Shown: positions 1 through 6,147 of the stretch, in pieces | Position numbering within the stretch: the stretch's first letter is position 1 | How the letters are laid out: each line of letters begins with the position of its first letter | Origin: Escherichia coli O127:H6 str. E2348/69 | Lineage (GTDB): Bacteria; Pseudomonadota; Gammaproteobacteria; Enterobacterales; Enterobacteriaceae | DNA length: 6,147 nt | Assembly (NCBI RefSeq): GCF_000026545.1 | Contig: NC_011602.1 | Direction: 5' to 3' (one strand) | Notes under the pieces: model-generated | Told to the model about the DNA's origin: nothing | The model's input: only the letters and a program-made list of their open reading frames with translations | The model's database searches: none | Program-made: the position numbers and the translations under genes

Positions 1-140
1 GATATATTTATTTCCAAAATGCTACAGATACATCATCATGAAACGGATCACCGCAAACAGGTTACTCGCCTGGGGATTCCCTTTCGACCCGAGCATCCGT
101 ATGAGACTCATGCTCGATTATTATTATTATAGAAGCCCCC

Positions 141-956
141 ATGAATAAATCGCTCATCATTTTCGGCATCGTCAACATAACCTCGGACAGTTTCTCCGAT
201 GGAGGCCGGTATCTGGCGCCAGACGCAGCCATTGCGCAGGCGCGTAAGCTGATGGCCGAGGGGGCAGATGTGATCGACCTCGGTCCGGCATCCAGCAATC
301 CCGACGCCGCGCCTGTTTCGTCCGACACAGAAATCGCGCGTATCGCGCCGGTGCTGGACGCGCTCAAGGCAGATGGCATTCCCGTCTCGCTCGACAGTTA
401 TCAACCCGCGACGCAAGCCTATGCCTTGTCGCGTGGTGTGGCCTATCTCAATGATATTCGCGGTTTTCCAGACGCTGCGTTCTATCCGCAATTGGCGAAA
501 TCATCTGCCAAACTCGTCGTTATGCATTCGGTGCAAGACGGGCAGGCAGATCGGCGCGAGGCACCCGCTGGCGACATCATGGATCACATTGCGGCGTTCT
601 TTGACGCGCGCATCGCGGCGCTGACGGGTGCCGGTATCAAACGCAACCGCCTTGTCCTTGATCCCGGCATGGGGTTTTTTCTGGGGGCTGCTCCCGAAAC
701 CTCGCTCTCGGTGCTGGCGCGGTTCGATGAATTGCGGCTGCGCTTCGATTTGCCGGTGCTTCTGTCTGTTTCGCGCAAATCCTTTCTGCGCGCGCTCACA
801 GGCCGTGGTCCGGGGGATGTCGGGGCCGCGACACTCGCTGCAGAGCTTGCCGCCGCCGCAGGTGGAGCTGACTTCATCCGCACACACGAGCCGCGCCCCT
901 TGCGCGACGGGCTGGCGGTATTGGCGGCGCTGAAAGAAACCGCAAGAATTCGTTAA
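141..956 (+). CDS. sul2: Sulfonamide-resistant dihydropteroate synthase Sul2
   Basis: 271-aa ORF, ATG at 141 and TAA at 954-956. The translation (MNKSLIIFGIVNITSDSFSDGG ... LAALKETARIR) matches Sul2 as I recall it over the full length. GC-rich relative to the backbone. Confidence 0.96.
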   Translation: MNKSLIIFGIVNITSDSFSDGGRYLAPDAAIAQARKLMAEGADVIDLGPASSNPDAAPVSSDTEIARIAPVLDALKADGIPVSLDSYQPATQAYALSRGVAYLNDIRGFPDAAFYPQLAKSSAKLVVMHSVQDGQADRREAPAGDIMDHIAAFFDARIAALTGAGIKRNRLVLDPGMGFFLGAAPETSLSVLARFDELRLRFDLPVLLSVSRKSFLRALTGRGPGDVGAATLAAELAAAAGGADFIRTHEPRPLRDGLAVLAALKETARIR

Positions 957-1016
957 CTGCACATTCGGGATATTTCTCTATATTCGCGCTTCATCAGAAA
1001 ACTGAAGGAACCTCCA

Positions 1017-1820
1017 TTGAATCGAACTAATATTTTTTTTGGTGAATCGCATTCTGACTGGTTGCCTGTCAGAGGCGGAGAATCTGGTGATTTTGTTTTT
1101 CGACGTGGTGACGGGCATGCCTTCGCGAAAATCGCACCTGCTTCCCGCCGCGGTGAGCTCGCTGGAGAGCGTGACCGCCTCATTTGGCTCAAAGGTCGAG
1201 GTGTGGCTTGCCCCGAGGTCATCAACTGGCAGGAGGAACAGGAGGGTGCATGCTTGGTGATAACGGCAATTCCGGGAGTACCGGCGGCTGATCTGTCTGG
1301 AGCGGATTTGCTCAAAGCGTGGCCGTCAATGGGGCAGCAACTTGGCGCTGTTCACAGCCTATCGGTTGATCAATGTCCGTTTGAGCGCAGGCTGTCGCGA
1401 ATGTTCGGACGCGCCGTTGATGTGGTGTCCCGCAATGCCGTCAATCCCGACTTCTTACCGGACGAGGACAAGAGTACGCCGCAGCTCGATCTTTTGGCTC
1501 GTGTCGAACGAGAGCTACCGGTGCGGCTCGACCAAGAGCGCACCGATATGGTTGTTTGCCATGGTGATCCCTGCATGCCGAACTTCATGGTGGACCCTAA
1601 AACTCTTCAATGCACGGGTCTGATCGACCTTGGGCGGCTCGGAACAGCAGATCGCTATGCCGATTTGGCACTCATGATTGCTAACGCCGAAGAGAACTGG
1701 GCAGCGCCAGATGAAGCAGAGCGCGCCTTCGCTGTCCTATTCAATGTATTGGGGATCGAAGCCCCCGACCGCGAACGCCTTGCCTTCTATCTGCGATTGG
1801 ACCCTCTGACTTGGGGTTGA
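1017..1820 (+). CDS. strA: Aminoglycoside 3''-phosphotransferase APH(3'')-Ib (streptomycin resistance, StrA)
   Basis: 267-aa ORF with a TTG start at 1017 preceded by GAAGGAAC; translation MNRTNIFFGESHSDWLPVRGG ... matches StrA from memory. Sits 60 bp downstream of sul2, as in the RSF1010-type cluster. Stop TGA at 1818-1820. Confidence 0.95.
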   Translation: MNRTNIFFGESHSDWLPVRGGESGDFVFRRGDGHAFAKIAPASRRGELAGERDRLIWLKGRGVACPEVINWQEEQEGACLVITAIPGVPAADLSGADLLKAWPSMGQQLGAVHSLSVDQCPFERRLSRMFGRAVDVVSRNAVNPDFLPDEDKSTPQLDLLARVERELPVRLDQERTDMVVCHGDPCMPNFMVDPKTLQCTGLIDLGRLGTADRYADLALMIANAEENWAAPDEAERAFAVLFNVLGIEAPDRERLAFYLRLDPLTWG

Positions 1821-2656
1821 TGTTCATGCCGCCTGTTTTTCCTGCTCATTGGCACGTTTCGCAACCTGTTCTCATTGCGGACACCTTTTCCAGCCTCGTT
1901 TGGAAAGTTTCATTGCCAGACGGGACTCCTGCAATCGTCAAGGGATTGAAACCTATAGAAGACATTGCTGATGAACTGCGCGGGGCCGACTATCTGGTAT
2001 GGCGCAATGGGAGGGGAGCAGTCCGGTTGCTCGGTCGTGAGAACAATCTGATGTTGCTCGAATATGCCGGGGAGCGAATGCTCTCTCACATCGTTGCCGA
2101 GCACGGCGACTACCAGGCGACCGAAATTGCAGCGGAACTAATGGCGAAGCTGTATGCCGCATCTGAGGAACCCCTGCCTTCTGCCCTTCTCCCGATCCGG
2201 GATCGCTTTGCAGCTTTGTTTCAGCGGGCGCGCGATGATCAAAACGCAGGTTGTCAAACTGACTACGTCCACGCGGCGATTATAGCCGATCAAATGATGA
2301 GCAATGCCTCGGAACTGCGTGGGCTACATGGCGATCTGCATCATGAAAACATCATGTTCTCCAGTCGCGGCTGGCTGGTGATAGATCCCGTCGGTCTGGT
2401 CGGTGAAGTGGGCTTTGGCGCCGCCAATATGTTCTACGATCCGGCTGACAGAGACGACCTTTGTCTCGATCCTAGACGCATTGCACAGATGGCGGACGCA
2501 TTCTCTCGTGCGCTGGACGTCGATCCGCGTCGCCTGCTCGACCAGGCGTACGCTTATGGGTGCCTTTCCGCAGCTTGGAACGCGGATGGAGAAGAGGAGC
2601 AACGCGATCTAGCTATCGCGGCCGCGATCAAGCAGGTGCGACAGACGTCATACTAG
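1820..2656 (+). CDS. strB: Aminoglycoside 6-phosphotransferase APH(6)-Id (streptomycin resistance, StrB)
   Basis: 278-aa product starting MFMPPVFPAHWHVSQ at ATG 1820, which overlaps the strA stop by 1 bp (TGATG), suggesting translational coupling. The ORF track extends the frame to a TTG at 1811, but the canonical StrB N-terminus supports 1820. Stop TAG at 2654-2656. Confidence 0.94.
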   Translation: MFMPPVFPAHWHVSQPVLIADTFSSLVWKVSLPDGTPAIVKGLKPIEDIADELRGADYLVWRNGRGAVRLLGRENNLMLLEYAGERMLSHIVAEHGDYQATEIAAELMAKLYAASEEPLPSALLPIRDRFAALFQRARDDQNAGCQTDYVHAAIIADQMMSNASELRGLHGDLHHENIMFSSRGWLVIDPVGLVGEVGFGAANMFYDPADRDDLCLDPRRIAQMADAFSRALDVDPRRLLDQAYAYGCLSAAWNADGEEEQRDLAIAAAIKQVRQTSY

Positions 2657-3167
2657 ATATCAAGCGACTTCTCCTATCCCCTGGGAACACATCAATCTCA
2701 CCGGAGAATATCGCTGGCCAAAGCCTTAGCGTAGGATTCCGCCCCTTCCCGCAAACGACCCCAAACAGGAAACGCAGCTGAAACGGGAAGCTCAACACCC
2801 ACTGACGCATGGGTTGTTCAGGCAGTACTTCATCAACCAGCAAGGCGGCACTTTCGGCCATCCGCCGCGCCCCACAGCTCGGGCAGAAACCGCGACGCTT
2901 ACAGCTGAAAGCGACCAGGTGCTCGGCGTGGCAAGACTCGCAGCGAACCCGTAGAAAGCCATGCTCCAGCCGCCCGCATTGGAGAAATTCTTCAAATTCC
3001 CGTTGCACATAGCCCGGCAATTCCTTTCCCTGCTCTGCCATAAGCGCAGCGAATGCCGGGTAATACTCGTCAACGATCTGATAGAGAAGGGTTTGCTCGG
3101 GTCGGTGGCTCTGGTAACGACCAGTATCCCGATCCCGGCTGGCCGTCCTGGCCGCCACATGAGGCAT
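2628..3167 (-). mobile_element. IS91-family (ISCR-like) rolling-circle transposase, 5' fragment only (N-terminal zinc-binding domain; catalytic HUH/Tyr domain absent)
   Basis: The minus-strand ORF starts at ATG (complement of 3165-3167) and encodes ...RPEQTLLYQIVDEYYPAF...CGRLEHGFLRVRCESCHAEHLVAFSCKRRGFCPSCGARRMAESAALLVDEVLPEQPMRQWVLSFPFQLR, the conserved N-terminal Cys-rich zinc-binding signature of IS91/ISCR transposases. Only about 540 bp are available where a full gene needs about 1.2-1.5 kb, and the reading frame runs into the 3' end of strB, so the gene is truncated. Assignment to CR2/ISCR2, the usual partner of sul2, is an inference I could not verify. The exact point where homology ends (somewhere between 2657 and about 2800) is unknown. 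Confidence 0.7.
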
Positions 3168-3186
3168 GTTCCGCGTCCTTGCAATA

Positions 3187-3202
3187 CTGTGTTTACATAC
3201 AG
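3187..3202. promoter_or_regulatory. LexA (SOS) box-like palindrome CTGTGTTTACATACAG (CTGT-N8-ACAG)
   Basis: Perfect CTGT-N8-ACAG with an AT-rich spacer, flanked TA...T as in the E. coli consensus TACTGT-N8-ACAGTA. It lies about 20 bp upstream of the transposase-fragment start codon on the minus strand, and about 19 of 21 bases match the second LexA box at 3651-3666. Function unproven. Confidence 0.45.
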
Positions 3203-3210
3203 TCTATCGC

Positions 3211-3600
3211 TTAGCGGAAAGTTCTTTTACCCTCAGCCGAAATGCCTGCCGTTGCTAGACATTGCCAGCCAGTGCCCGTCACTCCCACTCTTACATTGTT
3301 CGCAGTATCTAGGTACATGTTATTGCGTGCACCTTCATGATGTATAATGTTATTAATGACAGCAGAAAGATCGACAGAATTAATATTCTTCGTACCTGGG
3401 ACAGTTATCGGGTGTCGGCCAGTGATGAGACCAAAGGATGCAGTATAAGATGAACCACTACTATTATCATGGCCACCATTACCACCACCGTTAAAACTAC
3501 CTCCCGAACTTCCAGAGCCGCTATGACCATCATTGTAGGGGTCATTTGGTCCCATGTGACCAAAACCACCGACAGTACCGCTATTTAACTCTGTACTCAT
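3211..3600 (-). CDS. Glycine/serine-rich 129-aa protein of unknown function; colicin-like disordered N-terminus; SOS-box promoter
   Basis: ATG at complement of 3598-3600 with a strong RBS AGAGGA (3608-3613) 7 nt upstream. Product MSTELNSGTVGGFGHMGPNDPYNDGHSGSGSSGGSFNGGGNGGHDNSSGSS... followed by about 70 less biased residues. The ORF track starts the frame 11 codons upstream (3633), but the RBS supports 3600. The coding call is supported mainly by the RBS and promoter architecture; the product class is not established. Confidence 0.55.
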   Translation of the reverse strand: MSTELNSGTVGGFGHMGPNDPYNDGHSGSGSSGGSFNGGGNGGHDNSSGSSYTASFGLITGRHPITVPGTKNINSVDLSAVINNIIHHEGARNNMYLDTANNVRVGVTGTGWQCLATAGISAEGKRTFR

Positions 3601-3636
3601 AAAATTATCCTCTTTGACTTTTAAAAACAGCAAAAA

Positions 3637-3666
3637 CTGTATTTATAACAATGTGTTTATATACAG
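3637..3666 (-). promoter_or_regulatory. Tandem overlapping LexA boxes (colicin-type SOS operator)
   Basis: The plus strand reads CTGTATTTATAACAATGTGTTTATATACAG: box 1 at 3637-3652 (CTGT-N8-CAAT, degenerate inner half) and box 2 at 3651-3666 (ATGT-N8-ACAG), overlapping by 2 bp. This resembles the overlapping dual SOS boxes of colicin operons and sits between a candidate -10 and the RBS of the glycine-rich ORF. Confidence 0.65.
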
Positions 3667-3674
3667 TATTCGAA

Positions 3675-3704
3675 ATACTACGCCCGTCAAAACCACACCG
3701 TCAA
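3675..3704 (-). promoter_or_regulatory. Candidate sigma70 promoter for the glycine-rich ORF
   Basis: On the minus strand: -35 TTGACG (3699-3704), 18-bp spacer, -10 TAGTAT (3675-3680), immediately upstream of the LexA boxes. An alternative -35 TTGACG at 3685-3690 with -10 TACTGT would overlap box 2. Sequence-based only. Confidence 0.4.
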
Positions 3705-3817
3705 CAGGTTTTTTGTGTATTTTTCACGCCTCACGGGCAGCCTCAGACCTTTTGTGTTAAAACAGTAATATGTTCTGCTGTTACAATACGGTACACACAG
3801 GAGACACTGTCACTTTT

Positions 3818-4258
3818 ATGGCATGGCACACAGTTCAAGAGACACTGAAATTAACAGGAAAGTCGCGCTCGCAATTATATCGTGACATGGCTAAAGGCCT
3901 TGTCAGCTATCGCACAGGAAAAAATGATCGCCGGGAGTTCGAGACCAGTGAACTGATTCGGGCCTATGGCGAGCTGCGCACTTCTGAGACACCAAAAAGG
4001 CACAAGGAGGGACACTCCAAATCTGTCGTTAGCCAGGCGGAAAATGCTCAGCTAGACGTCATTCAGCAGAAACTGGACGCTCTGCAGCAGACTGTTACCC
4101 TAATGCTTGAAGACAAGATGGCGCGGGAAGCAGAAAACCGCCTGCGAAATGAGGAGAGGGAACAACTACAGGCCGAAATTAGCCGTCTGGCTGACGCGCT
4201 GGCACAGGAAAAAAAGCGGGGATTCTGGTCGCGGCTGTTTCGCTCCGGTTCAGAGTAA
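3818..4258 (+). CDS. Putative helix-turn-helix DNA-binding protein with C-terminal coiled coil (146 aa; function unknown)
   Basis: ORF with stop TAA at 4256-4258. The preferred start is ATG 3818 (MAWHTVQETLKLTGKSRSQLYRDMAKGLV...), preceded by AGGAG at 3799-3803 (14-nt spacing, longer than ideal) and an extended -10 TGtTACAAT at 3778-3787. An alternative in-frame ATG at 3770 gives 162 aa. The N-terminus looks like an AlpA/excisionase/MerR-like HTH; the C-terminal roughly 70 aa are heptad-like and rich in charged residues and Gln/Leu (...LDALQQTVTLMLEDKMAREAENRLRNEEREQLQAEISRLADALAQEKK) with a basic amphipathic tail. Confidence 0.55.
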   Translation: MAWHTVQETLKLTGKSRSQLYRDMAKGLVSYRTGKNDRREFETSELIRAYGELRTSETPKRHKEGHSKSVVSQAENAQLDVIQQKLDALQQTVTLMLEDKMAREAENRLRNEEREQLQAEISRLADALAQEKKRGFWSRLFRSGSE

Positions 4259-4852
4259 CAGTGCAGGTGACTCTGATTTACCATAACATCTGTTATCAGC
4301 ACCGCCTGAGAGGCCCTCAGGGCGTTTCTGACGGGAAACCGGTAAAACAGGCAACAAACCACCCGAAAACCCGCCAGAAACGCGCAGGCTCTGTTTTTAC
4401 GGCATGCATGAGTATGCGCACAAGTGCATAGCGCGGAAATTCACACCATTCAGCCGGGGTAAGTCCTGTTTCCGGCGTTCTTCCCATCCGAAAACGGTGA
4501 ACGGGGACGCAATTTATTGCGTGGCCGTGAAGCGTTGCCGGCGCAGCCGGAAAACCCGCTGTCAGCACGTTCAGGAAGGGGGTGATGTACAAATGGCACA
4601 GAGGATGAAAGTGACGTATGAGCTGAAGGAGCGATGTAATTCTGTAGTCAGGAAGAATAACCCGTTCATGCAGGCATGAACGATACAGTGAGGAACGCTT
4701 TTTTTGTCACGATCTCCCCTTAACCTGCGTAAATCACCCGCCATGGTTGATTATTTTTCAACCTCAAAATGGTCATACACCTAACGCAGCCGCGATTTTC
4801 ATCGCAACTGCATGAATTAAAAGAAAAAAAAGGAATATTTCGTTTTCACGAG

Positions 4853-4926
4853 TAATACCCGGGTATTAAAAATCCACTGTAATTACATGAAAATAAAGAA
4901 ATAAAAGGTAATACCGGAGTATTACC
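4853..4926. repeat. Cluster of related palindromes: TAATAC-N4-GTATTA twice, plus TGTAATTACA
   Basis: P1 at 4853-4868 is TAATACCCGGGTATTA, a perfect 16-bp palindrome. P2 at 4907-4926 is GGTAATACCGGAGTATTACC, 8-bp arms around CGGA. Both share half-sites TAATAC / GTATTA separated by 4 bp, with centres about 56 bp apart. P3 at 4878-4887 is TGTAATTACA, a perfect 10-bp palindrome in the AT-rich spacer. On the minus strand P2 is followed by TTTTATTTCTTTATTT and so may also act as an intrinsic terminator for the 4950-5099 ORF. Confidence 0.5.
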
Positions 4927-4949
4927 ACGTACGCGGGCAAGCGAAAAAG

Positions 4950-5099
4950 CTATAACGCTTCCCGGCCGACAGGCGACCCAAAATCCACAGGGGCATGCAG
5001 GTTCTCTTCAGTAACCTGCGCCATTAAATCAAAAAGGTCATATTCGCCGGGAAGCTGCGTATCAGTCGAATCCAGTTGTTCATCATATTCAGATGGCAT
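4950..5099 (-). CDS. Hypothetical small acidic protein (49 aa), next to bom/oriT
   Basis: Hand-translated minus-strand ORF, absent from the ORF track (probably below its length cutoff): MPSEYDEQLDSTDTQLPGEYDLFDLMAQVTEENLHAPVDFGSPVGREAL. ATG at complement of 5097-5099, stop at 4950-4952. No clear Shine-Dalgarno. The terminator-like hairpin P2 with a T-run lies 23 nt downstream. Coding status is uncertain. Confidence 0.25.
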   Translation of the reverse strand: MPSEYDEQLDSTDTQLPGEYDLFDLMAQVTEENLHAPVDFGSPVGREAL

Positions 5100-5125
5100 G
5101 GGGTGATATCCAGTAGCTGAGAGGT

Positions 5126-5200
5126 TGTTAGCGGGTTTCGGGGCGCAGCCCTGAACCAGTCATGTAGCGCTAGCGGAGTGTATACTGGCTTACTATGTTG
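5126..5200 (+). other. ColE1-type bom/oriT (basis of mobility) site
   Basis: ...CGGGGCGCAGCCCTGAACCAGTCATGTAGCGCTAGCGGAGTGTATACTGGCTTACTATG closely resembles the pBR322/ColE1 bom region as recalled (GGGGCGCAGCCATGACCCAGTCACGTAGCGATAGCGGAGTGTATACTGGCTTAACTATG). The nick is expected near the conserved TATACTGGCTTA motif (5181-5192). No cognate mob/mbe relaxase gene is present in the window. Confidence 0.6.
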
Positions 5201-5399
5201 CCACGATTGCGAAAATCAGTGAAGTGCTTCATGTGGCAGGAGAAAAAAGGCAGCACCGGCGCGTCAGCAGAATATGCGATACAGGAGATATTCCGCTTCC
5301 TCGCTCACTGACTCGCTACGCTCGGTCGTTCGGCTGCGGCGAGCGGTACCGGCTTACGGACGGGGACGGAAATTTCCTGGAAGATACCAGGAAGACACT

Positions 5400-5470
5400 T
5401 AGCAAAGAAGAGATAAGGCCACGGCGAAGCCGTTTTTCCATAGGCTCCGCCCCCCTGACAAGCATCGCAA
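5400..5470 (-). other. ColE1/p15A-type origin of replication (RNA-DNA transition region)
   Basis: AAGCCGTTTTTCCATAGGCTCCGCCCCCCTGACAAGCATC matches the conserved ori core of p15A/pMB1 replicons as recalled. It lies about 520-550 nt downstream of the inferred RNA II start, on the minus strand. Leading-strand replication is inferred to proceed leftward. Confidence 0.6.
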
Positions 5471-5955
5471 AATCTGACGCTCAAATCAGTGGTGGCGAAA
5501 CCCGACAGGACTATAAAGATCCCAGGCGTTTCCCCCTGGTAGCTCCCTCGTGCGCTCTCCTGTTCCTGCCTTTCGGTTTACCGGTGTCATTCCGCTGTTA
5601 TGGCCGCGGTTTCTCATTCCACGCCTGACACTCAGTTCCGTGAAGGCAGTTCGCTCCAAGCTGGACTGTATGCACGAACCCCCCGTTCAGTCCGACCGCT
5701 GCGCCTTGTCCGGTAACTATCAACTTGAGTCCAACCCGGAAAGACACGACAAAACGCCACTGGCAGCAGCCATTAGTAACAGGAGTGCACGAGAAGATAG
5801 ATTAAGAGGTCTTGAAGTAGAGGCCTGACTGCGGCTACACTGAAAGAACAGTTTTGGTAATGGCGGTCTCGTGAACCCTGTTACCGGGTTAAGCAGTTCC
5901 CCAACTGACTTAACCTTCGAACAAACCGCCTCCCCAGGCGGTTTTTTCGTTTACA
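5432..5955 (-). ncRNA. RNA II pre-primer transcript (approximate extent)
   Basis: Minus-strand promoter with -35 TTGAGA (complement of 5986-5991), 17-bp spacer, -10 TAATCT (complement of 5963-5968). The transcribed region is collinear with the p15A RNA II region as recalled, with many substitutions. Ends are approximate. Confidence 0.6.
5848..5947 (+). ncRNA. RNA I antisense copy-number control RNA (approximate extent)
   Basis: Plus-strand promoter with -35 TTGAAG (5812-5817), 18-bp spacer, -10 TACACT (5836-5841), and a start near ACAGTTTTGG as in ColE1 RNA I. It ends at an intrinsic terminator, CCGCC-TCCCCA-GGCGG plus T7 (5925-5947). It is antisense to the 5' end of RNA II. Confidence 0.6.
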
Positions 5956-6147
5956 GAGCAAGAGATTACGATTCATTGAAAAGGATCTCAAGAAGATCCT
6001 TTGTAGATTACTATCAATTAATCTTCCGAACATGACACCAGTCACTGTTGATTACGGTTAAACCGCTCCGTAACAGGTTTCCCTCGTATTGGTGACTTGC
6101 AGCACCAAAGAAGCAAAAAAGATAAATATATCTACTTATTGAGAGAT

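Follow-up and report, generated by a model that had tools for sequence, protein, structure and literature searches.

Of the described systems closest to the DNA analysed here, the p9123 family of small plasmids relies on RNAI/RNAII replication and lacks a relaxase; sul2 is found in all members, mostly as sul2-strA-strB-truncated ISVsa3, and the sul2-ISVsa3 configuration of NC_005862.1, reported from Anantham and Hall, is the presumed precursor (PMC6807383). A second point of reference is the CR2-sul2 unit of GIsul2; in experiments the GIsul2 integrase moves this unit and also accepts shortened cores, for example TGGG or GGGA (PMC9376610). A third is the IncQ1 plasmid RSF1010, which also carries sul2-strA-strB.

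The window, by which we mean the whole stretch of 6147 nt, is on alignment a rotated copy of the Escherichia coli plasmid p6148 (NC_011795.1, 6148 bp, circular). The plasmid is already known, and belongs to the small, relaxase-less, ColE1-type and globally spread p9123 family (RelN-RNA type 1). With p9123 itself (NC_005324.1, 6222 bp) and the rest of this family, including pCERC1, the window shares its ColE1-type backbone, junctions, module and absence of a relaxase; over its full length it is 99.9–100% identical to p9123, to p6148 and to many ~6.2-kb records, and sul2 is accompanied by an ISVsa3/ISCR2 remnant. Differences within the family are few: sizes of 6148, 6178, 6200, 6211 and 6222 bp go with a varying copy number of an 11-bp repeat, and pCERC1 has, in addition to what is in the window, a dfrA14 cassette inserted in strA. 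The account that we give below (identity with p6148, a seamless junction, gene replacement by the module, a three-step history and a backbone promoter before sul2) is, taken as a whole, one in which we have high confidence.

The plasmid unit and the joining of its ends

1–6147, no strand: complete plasmid unit, from colinearity with circular records and lack of terminal overlap
4560–4660, no strand: what is left of a variable tandem array of 11-bp repeats (unit TGATGTAAAAG), shorter by 53 bp in the window and p6148
5849–5950, plus strand: RNA I, antisense copy-number regulator (Rfam RF00106, 73.9 bits, E 1e-12; L003 809–910)

The window and p6148 agree in sequence over the whole length and in the order of their genes, and they share both boundaries of the module and the 53-bp deletion in the repeat array; the p6148 record opens with the module, at window position 45. 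Only two differences separate NC_011795.1 from the rotated window: a 1-nt indel at 2848, where p6148 has an extra T that causes a frameshift in the ISCR2 remnant, and an A/G difference at 6061, where p6148 has G and the window A. At both positions the window agrees with its 6200-bp relative CP137938.1, from which it differs solely by a 53-bp gap at 4622; among the compared records, p6148 alone shares this deletion.

Is the window a complete circle, as the earlier note had suggested from its single replicon, single oriT, single resistance module and a size fitting small sul2-strA-strB plasmids? Each of these premises holds, with one ColE1-type replicon, one bom/oriT-like stretch, one sul2-strA-strB module and circular relatives of 6148–6222 bp, and so does the suggestion itself. 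The window is colinear throughout with these complete circular records, end to end with NC_011795.1, CP137938.1 and NC_005324.1, and at least 140 records cover at least 80% of it. In alignment to circular records base 6147 abuts base 1 with no gap or overlap and with nothing missing or duplicated, and a search for terminal redundancy of 5–399 nt at the window ends found none. A 60-mer across the ends (6118–6147 + 1–30) is internal to six independently linearised records, and a 407-nt junction query is unbroken in at least 162 PLSDB records. Comparison with other plasmid records therefore indicates a circular molecule, and we read the window as one complete unit of a p9123-family plasmid of the p6148 type, opened at an arbitrary point in intergenic backbone. 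It can be annotated as such, with the step from 6147 to 1 treated as continuous.

That the window is instead a piece of a larger replicon, cut from a cointegrate with a conjugative plasmid or chromosome or taken as a single unit out of a tandem multimer, is very improbable, although such arrangements exist: pECW602 (94.8 kb, IncF) holds the entire small plasmid, NZ_CP022499.1 (38.9 kb) contains several copies of it, and one cointegrated family member is listed in PMC6807383. The window, however, is exactly one unit long with ends that adjoin cleanly, and the sole record with the same 53-bp deletion is the 6148-bp circle p6148. In pECW602, moreover, the small plasmid has a permuted order and is fused by way of ISCR2 (fusion points in window 2762–3290), with the 6147/1 junction internal; because the fusion is there and not at 6147/1, the embedded relatives support the junction.

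The replicon shows a ColE1-type RNAI/RNAII system, with an RNAI match of 73.9 bits against an Rfam gathering score of 47 and an RNA I terminator at 5923–5944. Positions 5123–6003 align at 73% identity to a pBR322 bom/ori sequence, a match that we take as a lead only. From this alignment, the RNA II promoter region presumably lies at ~5955–5991 on the minus strand, a region that a simple promoter scan did not flag, and a stretch at ~5127–5200, in which most columns are identical to pBR322 bom, is presumably bom/oriT-like. So placed by homology, the RNA II promoter would fire leftwards, away from the 6147/1 junction, and the segment from it to the sul2 ATG at 141 measures ~290 bp, the length claimed for it earlier. 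PLSDB types the matching records as 'mobilizable' and lists no relaxase; no ORF in the window is long enough for a relaxase gene, and the backbone ORFs that match annotated genes contain no relaxase domain (the three longest of them in the backbone measure 162, 140 and 134 aa).

The resistance module and its two boundaries

6004–6147, no strand: AT-rich, family-specific backbone from the RNA II promoter to the module, running on into 1–44
1–44, plus strand: final backbone stretch before the module, with the ATG (38–40), plus four more bases, of a signal-peptide gene (199 aa) that was displaced
45–140, plus strand: truncated sul2 upstream region, 96 bp of the canonical ~304 bp
141–956, plus strand: sul2, sulfonamide-resistant dihydropteroate synthase (100% identity, AMRFinder annotation of NC_011795.1)
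998–2761, plus strand: strA-strB segment (strA 1017–1820, strB 1820–2656)
2762–3290, minus strand: truncated ISCR2/CR2 (Zn_Tnp_IS91; ISCR clade Ia)
3291–3600, minus strand: glycine-rich bacteriocin-like gene, cut short by the module to its 5' 310 nt (103 codons)

The resistance module spans 45–3290, and recently deposited sul2-free relatives fix both its boundaries and the ancestral site to the base. Four such relatives carry, at the module position, an intact 1085-bp segment, on which lie a 199-aa signal-peptide gene, itself intact, and the 3' part of a lysozyme-like, bacteriocin-like gene of 260 aa. Backbone identity with them reaches base 44 and resumes at 3284–3291; for NZ_CP096196.1 (4068 bp, Enterobacter roggenkampii; L004) it is 99.7–100% over window 3284–6147 + 1–44. 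On this comparison, what the module has replaced is the 199-aa gene, beginning with the third codon, and the 3' portion of the bacteriocin-like gene, whose truncated reading frame now runs on into CR2 sequence to a stop at 3211. The intact 260-aa homologue in NZ_CP096196.1 has a Phage_lysozyme/Pesticin-like C-terminal domain and weak T4-lysozyme matches. The 199-aa exported protein may be the corresponding immunity protein, since its gene is convergent with the lysozyme-like one; behind this bacteriocin/immunity assignment stand a single Pfam domain match of 26.3 bits and, for the rest, the gene layout.

At the left boundary, the joined 188 bp (6004–6147 + 1–44; 35% G+C) are 100% identical to NZ_CP096196.1 (L004 1636–1823), in which, as in the other sul2-free relatives, they form the upstream region of the 199-aa gene; similarity to other ColE1-like origins ends at ~6003. 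The sul2-free plasmid continues ATGAAAC|TAATTAAC (CDS annotated at L004 1817–2416), and the window at the same point reads ATGAAAC|GGATCACC, a junction that creates a fused 36-codon ORF at 38–148 overlapping the start of sul2. The identical stretch shared with NZ_CP096196.1 ends at 44, and that shared with every other sul2 context, the RSF1010-derived locus L006 among them, sets in at 42–45. The joined segment thus holds the other module boundary, as had been predicted, and that boundary lies between bases 44 and 45. No homology at all exists at this junction, which recurs in ~240 records. Large IncI and IncN plasmids keep 67–182 bp of the junction backbone attached to sul2. The 44|45 junction can serve as a sequence marker for tracing sul2 loci in large plasmids back to the p9123 family.

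Two comparisons that the earlier note suggested for this segment turned out negative. ISCR2 sequence, the oriIS end included, is absent from 6000–6147 + 1–140: blastn-short against the full sul2-to-terIS region of NC_005862.1 yielded only chance matches of 8–11 nt (E at least 0.12). The RSF1010 sequence upstream of sul2 is there in part: the proximal 96–99 bp are present, RSF1010 and the window being identical from that point onward through sul2-strA-strB, and the further 208 bp, common to the RSF1010, IncC and pAB3 sul2 contexts, are absent. The RSF1010/IncQ1 context beyond the sul2 leader, repC included, is missing from the window, which has ColE1-type backbone in its stead. Relative to the RSF1010/GIsul2 unit, then, the window lacks the 208 bp up to attR (~-304) and the IncQ rep genes, and its rcr2 is cut to 406 nt. 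With 96 bp kept, and the attR boundary ~304 bp upstream of sul2 not reached, the left module end is by alignment a non-canonical truncation.

The right boundary is canonical. Of the transposase gene rcr2 the ISCR2 remnant keeps the 5' 406 nt (start 3167, down to 2762), so that rcr2 is incomplete; the remnant also has a LexA-box-like site at 3187–3202, a proposed terIS at 3268–3286 and the att core TCCCACTC at 3283–3290 (sequences from PMC9376610). The attLR core of the canonical CR2-sul2 unit (PMC9376610), read as GAGTGGGA at 3283–3290, coincides with the right end of the module, with backbone from 3291; it lies 116–123 bp upstream of the rcr2 start, the canonical position being 112–130 bp.

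Between the boundaries, the 6066-bp Salmonella Choleraesuis plasmid NC_005862.1 provides the most direct comparison. Its backbone and its left and right module junctions are identical to those of the window (common parts 1–997 and 2762–6147), but in place of the window's 1764-bp strA-strB segment it has the sul2 downstream sequence and an entire ISVsa3/ISCR2. The strA-strB segment, which we take to be of Tn5393 origin, stands in place of the glmM remnant and ISCR2 3' part of the sul2-ISVsa3 precursor form.

A proposed route of module entry

How might the module have come to sit between these two junctions? The simplest history, we infer, would have three steps. A CR2-sul2 circle would first integrate at a secondary att-like site within the bacteriocin-like gene; one deletion of ~1.3 kb would then cost the unit 208 bp and the backbone 1085 bp; and the strA-strB segment would finally replace part of ISCR2. 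At the right module end, the att core GAGTGGGA meets the backbone at the point that reads CAGTGGGG in the ancestral form. One base flanking the core is C at 3290 and G in NZ_CP096196.1 (L004), which departs from the simplest crossover picture, and the 6-bp match at the right junction (AGTGGG) could also reflect illegitimate joining at a microhomology.

Rolling-circle transposition that ends at terIS is a proposed mode of movement for ISCR elements. A single illegitimate event, through microhomology or replication slippage, or an ISCR2 rolling-circle transposition, in place of integrase-mediated integration followed by deletion, would fit the left junction, at which there is no homology whatever, and the terIS at 3268–3286, where such transposition would end. 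We nevertheless put it well below even chances. The 8-bp att core used by the GIsul2 integrase marks the right junction to the base, and 6/8 of its bases recur at the ancestral site; a single rolling-circle pass that stopped at terIS would leave sul2 behind, since in the present orientation the gene is situated past the oriIS side; and in experiments rcr2 is dispensable and the integrase required for CR2-sul2 movement (PMC9376610). Integration by the integrase and subsequent deletion is accordingly the reading that we retain, in conditional form.

Candidate promoters and an inverted repeat before sul2

6139–6144, plus strand: -35-like hexamer TTGAGA, a consensus match partnered by the -10 at 15–20
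15–20, plus strand: -10-like hexamer CAAAAT, with a predicted start at ~27–30, towards sul2
6122–6132, no strand: left arm ATAAATATATC of an 11-bp perfect inverted repeat (L003 1082–1092)
1–11, no strand: right arm GATATATTTAT of the same repeat (L003 1108–1118)

The earlier note had raised the possibility of a promoter reading into sul2 from the joined segment, and a candidate is indeed found straddling 6147/1. TTGAGA and CAAAAT, 17 nt apart, give 9/12 consensus matches (L003 1099–1127), in a site split by the linearisation point; the -10 hexamer is weak, and promoter-like sites are no commoner here than in shuffled sequence (2 found against a mean of 1.2). The 15-nt spacer of the inverted repeat contains the -35 hexamer, and of 2000 dinucleotide-preserving shuffles made from the 188-bp segment, 7 contained a perfect inverted repeat of at least 11 nt. 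Sul2-free NZ_CP096196.1 (L004) has the junction, the inverted repeat and the same promoter-like site, 18 nt upstream of its 199-aa gene. Conservation provides no test of the promoter because the backbone is clonal (at least 99% identity), and literature searches found no transcription-start data. The putative captured promoter becomes visible only once the record is circularised.

A second promoter-like site lies within the module: ATGAGA (101–106), 18 nt, TATTAT (125–130). It occurs in every sul2 context and could suffice alone, in which case sul2-strA-strB would be transcribed only from 101–130 and the backbone site and inverted repeat would be functionless leftovers of the lost gene. We regard this as a serious contender that nonetheless falls short of even chances. 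The 96-bp sul2-proximal region, internal site included, is identical in the RSF1010, IncC, pAB3 and p9123 contexts, which makes this region the one element that all expressed sul2 loci have in common. Yet a -10 at 125–130 leaves a leader of ~4 nt before the ATG at 141, and its -35 hexamer is poor. The canonical contexts, too, have a further 208 bp upstream (in RSF1010 also repC), so that extra transcription could enter, and the p9123 family has lost these; large plasmids that captured sul2 from the family have kept at least 67 bp of backbone including the junction promoter-like site. With the module in place, sul2-strA-strB follows directly on the retained putative promoter region of the backbone, and we think that this backbone promoter probably contributes to or drives module transcription, alongside the weak module-internal site.

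A more far-reaching version can be offered tentatively, at somewhat less than even confidence: resistance in this family may depend on the captured promoter of a lost bacteriocin-immunity-like gene, flanked on both sides by the arms of an 11-bp inverted-repeat operator, and the whole family may have descended from a small Enterobacter or Klebsiella plasmid for a lysozyme-type bacteriocin, by GIsul2-integrase insertion of a CR2-sul2 circle at a secondary att site in the bacteriocin gene and a 1.3-kb deletion. With the backbone signals that now stand before sul2 identified, these signals could help to explain the stable expression and wide spread of the plasmid.

Identity and circularity of the plasmid

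When the whole window (6147 bases) was searched by megablast against PLSDB, at least 140 records were found to hold at least 80% of it in one place, the top match being NC_011795.1, the complete, circular 6148-bp Escherichia coli plasmid p6148. After rotation, the window differs from p6148 only by a T indel at 2848 and an A/G difference at 6061, and it departs from the 6200-bp relative CP137938.1 only by an internal gap of 53 bp that follows 4622. A complete circular record is thus present in full, and 6147 runs directly into 1; no terminal overlap of 5-399 nt, the sign of an assembly artefact, was found at the window ends. A 60-mer across the junction (last 30 plus first 30 bases) is internal to six independently linearised records, namely p6148, p9123, the 6200-bp plasmid, a 6066-bp Salmonella plasmid, a sul2-free 4068-bp Enterobacter plasmid and a 94.8-kb IncF cointegrate, and a 407-nt junction query is unbroken in at least 162 records. 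Colinearity with circular p6148, seamless ends and the presence of the junction in these other records argue strongly for the suggestion of an earlier note that the window is a complete circular plasmid.

The window is a known plasmid of the well-described p9123 family, and the object itself is not novel. This family, also called RelN-RNA type 1, consists of small plasmids without a relaxase that use RNAI/RNAII replication; all carry sul2, and most carry sul2-strA-strB-truncated ISVsa3 (PMC6807383, which cites Anantham and Hall 2012 and Enne et al. 2004). A literature search by the name 'p6148' returned no plasmid paper. Our additions are small: base-exact module boundaries, an ancestral bacteriocin-type locus, and a promoter-like site with an inverted repeat that are split by the linearisation point.

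The earlier note had counted one replicon, one oriT and one resistance module, and an RNAI match, an oriT-like stretch in a bom alignment, and sul2, strA and strB agree with that count. Its figure of roughly 290 bp between the RNA II promoter and the sul2 ATG across the junction also stands. No window ORF is long enough to encode a relaxase. Window 5123-6003 aligns at 73% identity with the pBR322 bom/ori region, an alignment that serves as a lead only. The RNA II promoter was missed by a simple promoter scan; the sensitivity of such a scan is therefore limited, and the promoter was placed by homology.

Replicon features of the window
5849-5950, + strand: RNAI (Rfam match, converted from CP137938.1 coordinates)
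5923-5944: RNAI terminator
~5955-5991, - strand: RNA II promoter, firing leftwards (alignment to the pBR322 bom/ori region)
~5127-5200: bom/oriT-like stretch (same alignment)

Several further observations concern the backbone. An 11-bp tandem repeat array (unit TGATGTAAAAG) occupies window 4560-4660 (5739-5778 in CP137938.1); its copy number varies across the family and is reflected in record sizes of 6148, 6178, 6200, 6211 and 6222 bp. The 53 bp missing from the array in the window and p6148 are flanked by near-identical GTATGA(G/A)CTGAAGGA repeats; in PLSDB this deletion of the window is shared by p6148 only, and it is absent among complete E. coli genome records. At 2848 and 6061, the window agrees with CP137938.1, and the extra T at 2848 in the RefSeq p6148 record causes a frameshift in the ISCR2 remnant; both differences may have arisen on the side of the deposited p6148 sequence, as errors or as private mutations. 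A 146-aa backbone protein (3818-4258), which some records name 'entry exclusion protein 1', matches an NCBIfam subfamily of 'plasmid replication DNA-binding protein' below threshold (E 2e-11; 44 bits versus a cut-off of 85).

Boundaries and make-up of the resistance module

The left boundary can be set between bases 44 and 45 by sequence comparison. The sul2-free 4068-bp Enterobacter roggenkampii plasmid (NZ_CP096196.1) matches window 3284-6147 plus 1-44 at 99.7-100% identity, and matches to all other sul2 contexts start at window 42-45. Here the backbone reads ...CATCATGAAAC followed by TAATTAAC, and the window reads ...CATCATGAAAC followed by GGATCACC. The other module boundary, which the earlier note had placed inside the joined segment, was thus found there. 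RSF1010 sequence upstream of sul2, also raised in that note, is present in part: the proximal 96 bp are shared, but a further 208 bp, common to RSF1010-derived, IncC and pAB3-type loci, are absent. These loci have a common boundary ~304 bp upstream of sul2, the same point as the attR boundary of the CR2-sul2 unit (PMC9376610), whereas the p9123 family keeps just 96 bp of the region. The position at -96 was considered as the canonical end of the mobile unit and rejected, since RSF1010 and IncC contexts continue together for another 208 bp; the truncation is therefore family-specific. An ISCR2 oriIS end at the junction was likewise rejected, as the segment has no ISCR2 similarity beyond chance matches.

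Module parts were defined by comparison with the 6066-bp NC_005862.1, a plasmid that shares its backbone and junctions with the window but carries a complete ISVsa3 (ISCR2) in place of the truncated ISCR2. Matches to Pfam Zn_Tnp_IS91 and NCBIfam ISCR clade Ia confirm the transposase remnant.

Genes, pieces and sites of the resistance module
141-956: sul2
1017-1820: strA
1820-2656: strB
45-997: sul2 piece
998-2761: strA-strB piece, where NC_005862.1 has the sequence downstream of sul2 and the 3' part of ISCR2
2762-3290: ISCR2 piece, with the 5' 406 nt of the transposase gene and its upstream region
3268-3286: proposed CR2 terIS
3283-3290: 8-bp att core TCCCACTC, reverse complement of GAGTGGGA

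At its right end, the module reads ...GCCAGTGCCCGTCACTCCCACTC followed by TTACATTG, and the ancestral backbone reads CCCCACTG followed by TTACATTG, a 6/8 match to the att core; the site in the sul2-free Enterobacter plasmid that corresponds to the proposed integration target is CAATGTAACAGTGGGGATTGG. The GIsul2 integrase has been shown experimentally to move the CR2-sul2 unit via the 8-bp att core (PMC9376610). As a separate observation, a perfect LexA-box-like motif, CTGTGTTTACATACAG, lies at 3187-3202, 20-35 nt upstream of the ISCR2 transposase start (chance expectation 0.03); SOS control of ISCR transposase expression is already known from a recent report (bioRxiv 10.1101/2025.11.21.689736).

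The displaced ancestral locus and a proposed history

What did the module displace? In the sul2-free Enterobacter plasmid and in three further sul2-free records, the two junction points enclose 1085 bp. This segment holds a 199-aa gene, whose product opens with a typical signal peptide and whose ATG is window 38-40, and the 3' part of a 260-aa gene convergent with it, with a terminator common to both genes between them. The 260-aa protein is glycine-rich at its N-terminus, and its C-terminal domain is Phage_lysozyme/Pesticin-like (Pfam 26.3 bits, cut-off 22.3); against solved structures, it gave weak T4-lysozyme matches only, and the 199-aa protein gave nothing credible. From its layout, the locus looks like a small bacteriocin/immunity pair. 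Of the bacteriocin-like gene, the first 103 codons (3600 down to 3291) survive in the window, where they run on into CR2 sequence.

Sul2-free relatives on the p9123 backbone occur in Enterobacter roggenkampii and Klebsiella variicola with both genes intact (1817-3225 in NZ_CP096196.1). They look like newly found examples of the ancestral state, because a 2019 survey found sul2 in 35 of 35 family members (PMC6807383). Just upstream of the truncated gene, an AT-rich stretch at 3637-3670, CTGTATTTATAACAATGTGTTTATATACAG, is similar to the imperfect, overlapping LexA boxes found in colicin promoters; the strict CTGT-N8-ACAG pattern has no match in this stretch.

From the two junction sequences, we infer that a CR2-sul2 circle would have integrated at an AGTGGG-containing secondary site within the bacteriocin-like gene, and that a single ~1.3-kb deletion, taking 208 bp from the unit and 1085 bp from the backbone, would then have left the sul2 leader joined to the upstream gene at its codon 3. 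Integrase-dependent movement and use of reduced core sites have experimental support (PMC9376610). Entry of the module by a single illegitimate event, or by rolling-circle transposition, seems to us less likely. After integration and deletion, the strA-strB segment would have taken the place of part of ISCR2, a step supported by the existence of a precursor form, NC_005862.1 with its complete ISVsa3.

Putative promoter signals at the junction, and the junction as a marker

In the 6200-bp relative, where the junction is intact, a promoter scan picked out two promoter-like + strand sites. Both are consensus matches no more frequent than in shuffled sequence, and for this reason their status is putative.

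Promoter-like sites and inverted repeat
6139-6144 and 15-20, + strand: site 1, TTGAGA, 17-nt spacer, CAAAAT (consensus match; split by the linearisation point)
101-106 and 125-130, + strand: site 2, ATGAGA, 18-nt spacer, TATTAT (consensus match; inside the module)
6122-6132 and 1-11: 11-bp perfect inverted repeat, bracketing the -35 hexamer of site 1

The idea that the joined segment contains a promoter into sul2 is partly upheld, in that a promoter-like site straddles the junction, but one within shuffle frequency. In the sul2-free Enterobacter plasmid, site 1 precedes the 199-aa gene by 18 nt; in the window, it would start transcription at ~27-30, reading via a fused 36-codon ORF (38-148) into sul2. 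Site 2 is common to all sul2 contexts, and transcription of sul2-strA-strB from a promoter within the module only is a reading that we hold possible, if rather doubtful. No usable report of a mapped sul2 promoter came from a literature search, the primary p9123/pCERC1 and sul2-plasmid papers lying outside that search. When the 188-bp segment was shuffled 2000 times with its dinucleotides preserved, an inverted repeat as long as that around site 1 came up in 7 shuffles, and the observed repeat could be a candidate operator. Diverged homologues of the 188-bp junction backbone were sought as a measure of promoter and repeat conservation; the family is clonal and offers no comparative power.

Other records also carry sequence of the plasmid. 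In the 94.8-kb IncF plasmid pECW602 (NZ_CP058344.1, 4001-10729), the entire small plasmid is integrated adjoining floR, and duplication of the ISCR2 segment (window 2762-3290), with one copy at each end, indicates that ISCR2 copies recombined homologously. NZ_CP022499.1 (38,945 bp, Salmonella) matches different plasmid parts in four to eight separate places, which suggests a multimer or concatenated assembly of p9123-type units. The 188-bp enterobacterial junction backbone also has a 100% identical match in the 1505-bp NZ_CP047110.1, labelled a Bacillus anthracis plasmid, probably through contamination or an assembly artefact.

In large IncI and IncN plasmids, sul2 is found with 67-182 bp of p9123-type backbone attached.

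Large-plasmid sul2 loci with attached p9123-type backbone
NZ_CP086501.1, locus positions 4449-4663
NZ_CP028173.1

An IS26 copy lies directly upstream of the retained backbone in the IncI record. By sequence comparison, these loci show export of the p9123-type junction to large plasmids, and they are compatible with the exported backbone piece being useful for expression. Because such plasmids carry sul2 with p9123-type backbone attached, the junction between bases 44 and 45 is a marker for sul2 loci derived from p9123-type small plasmids.
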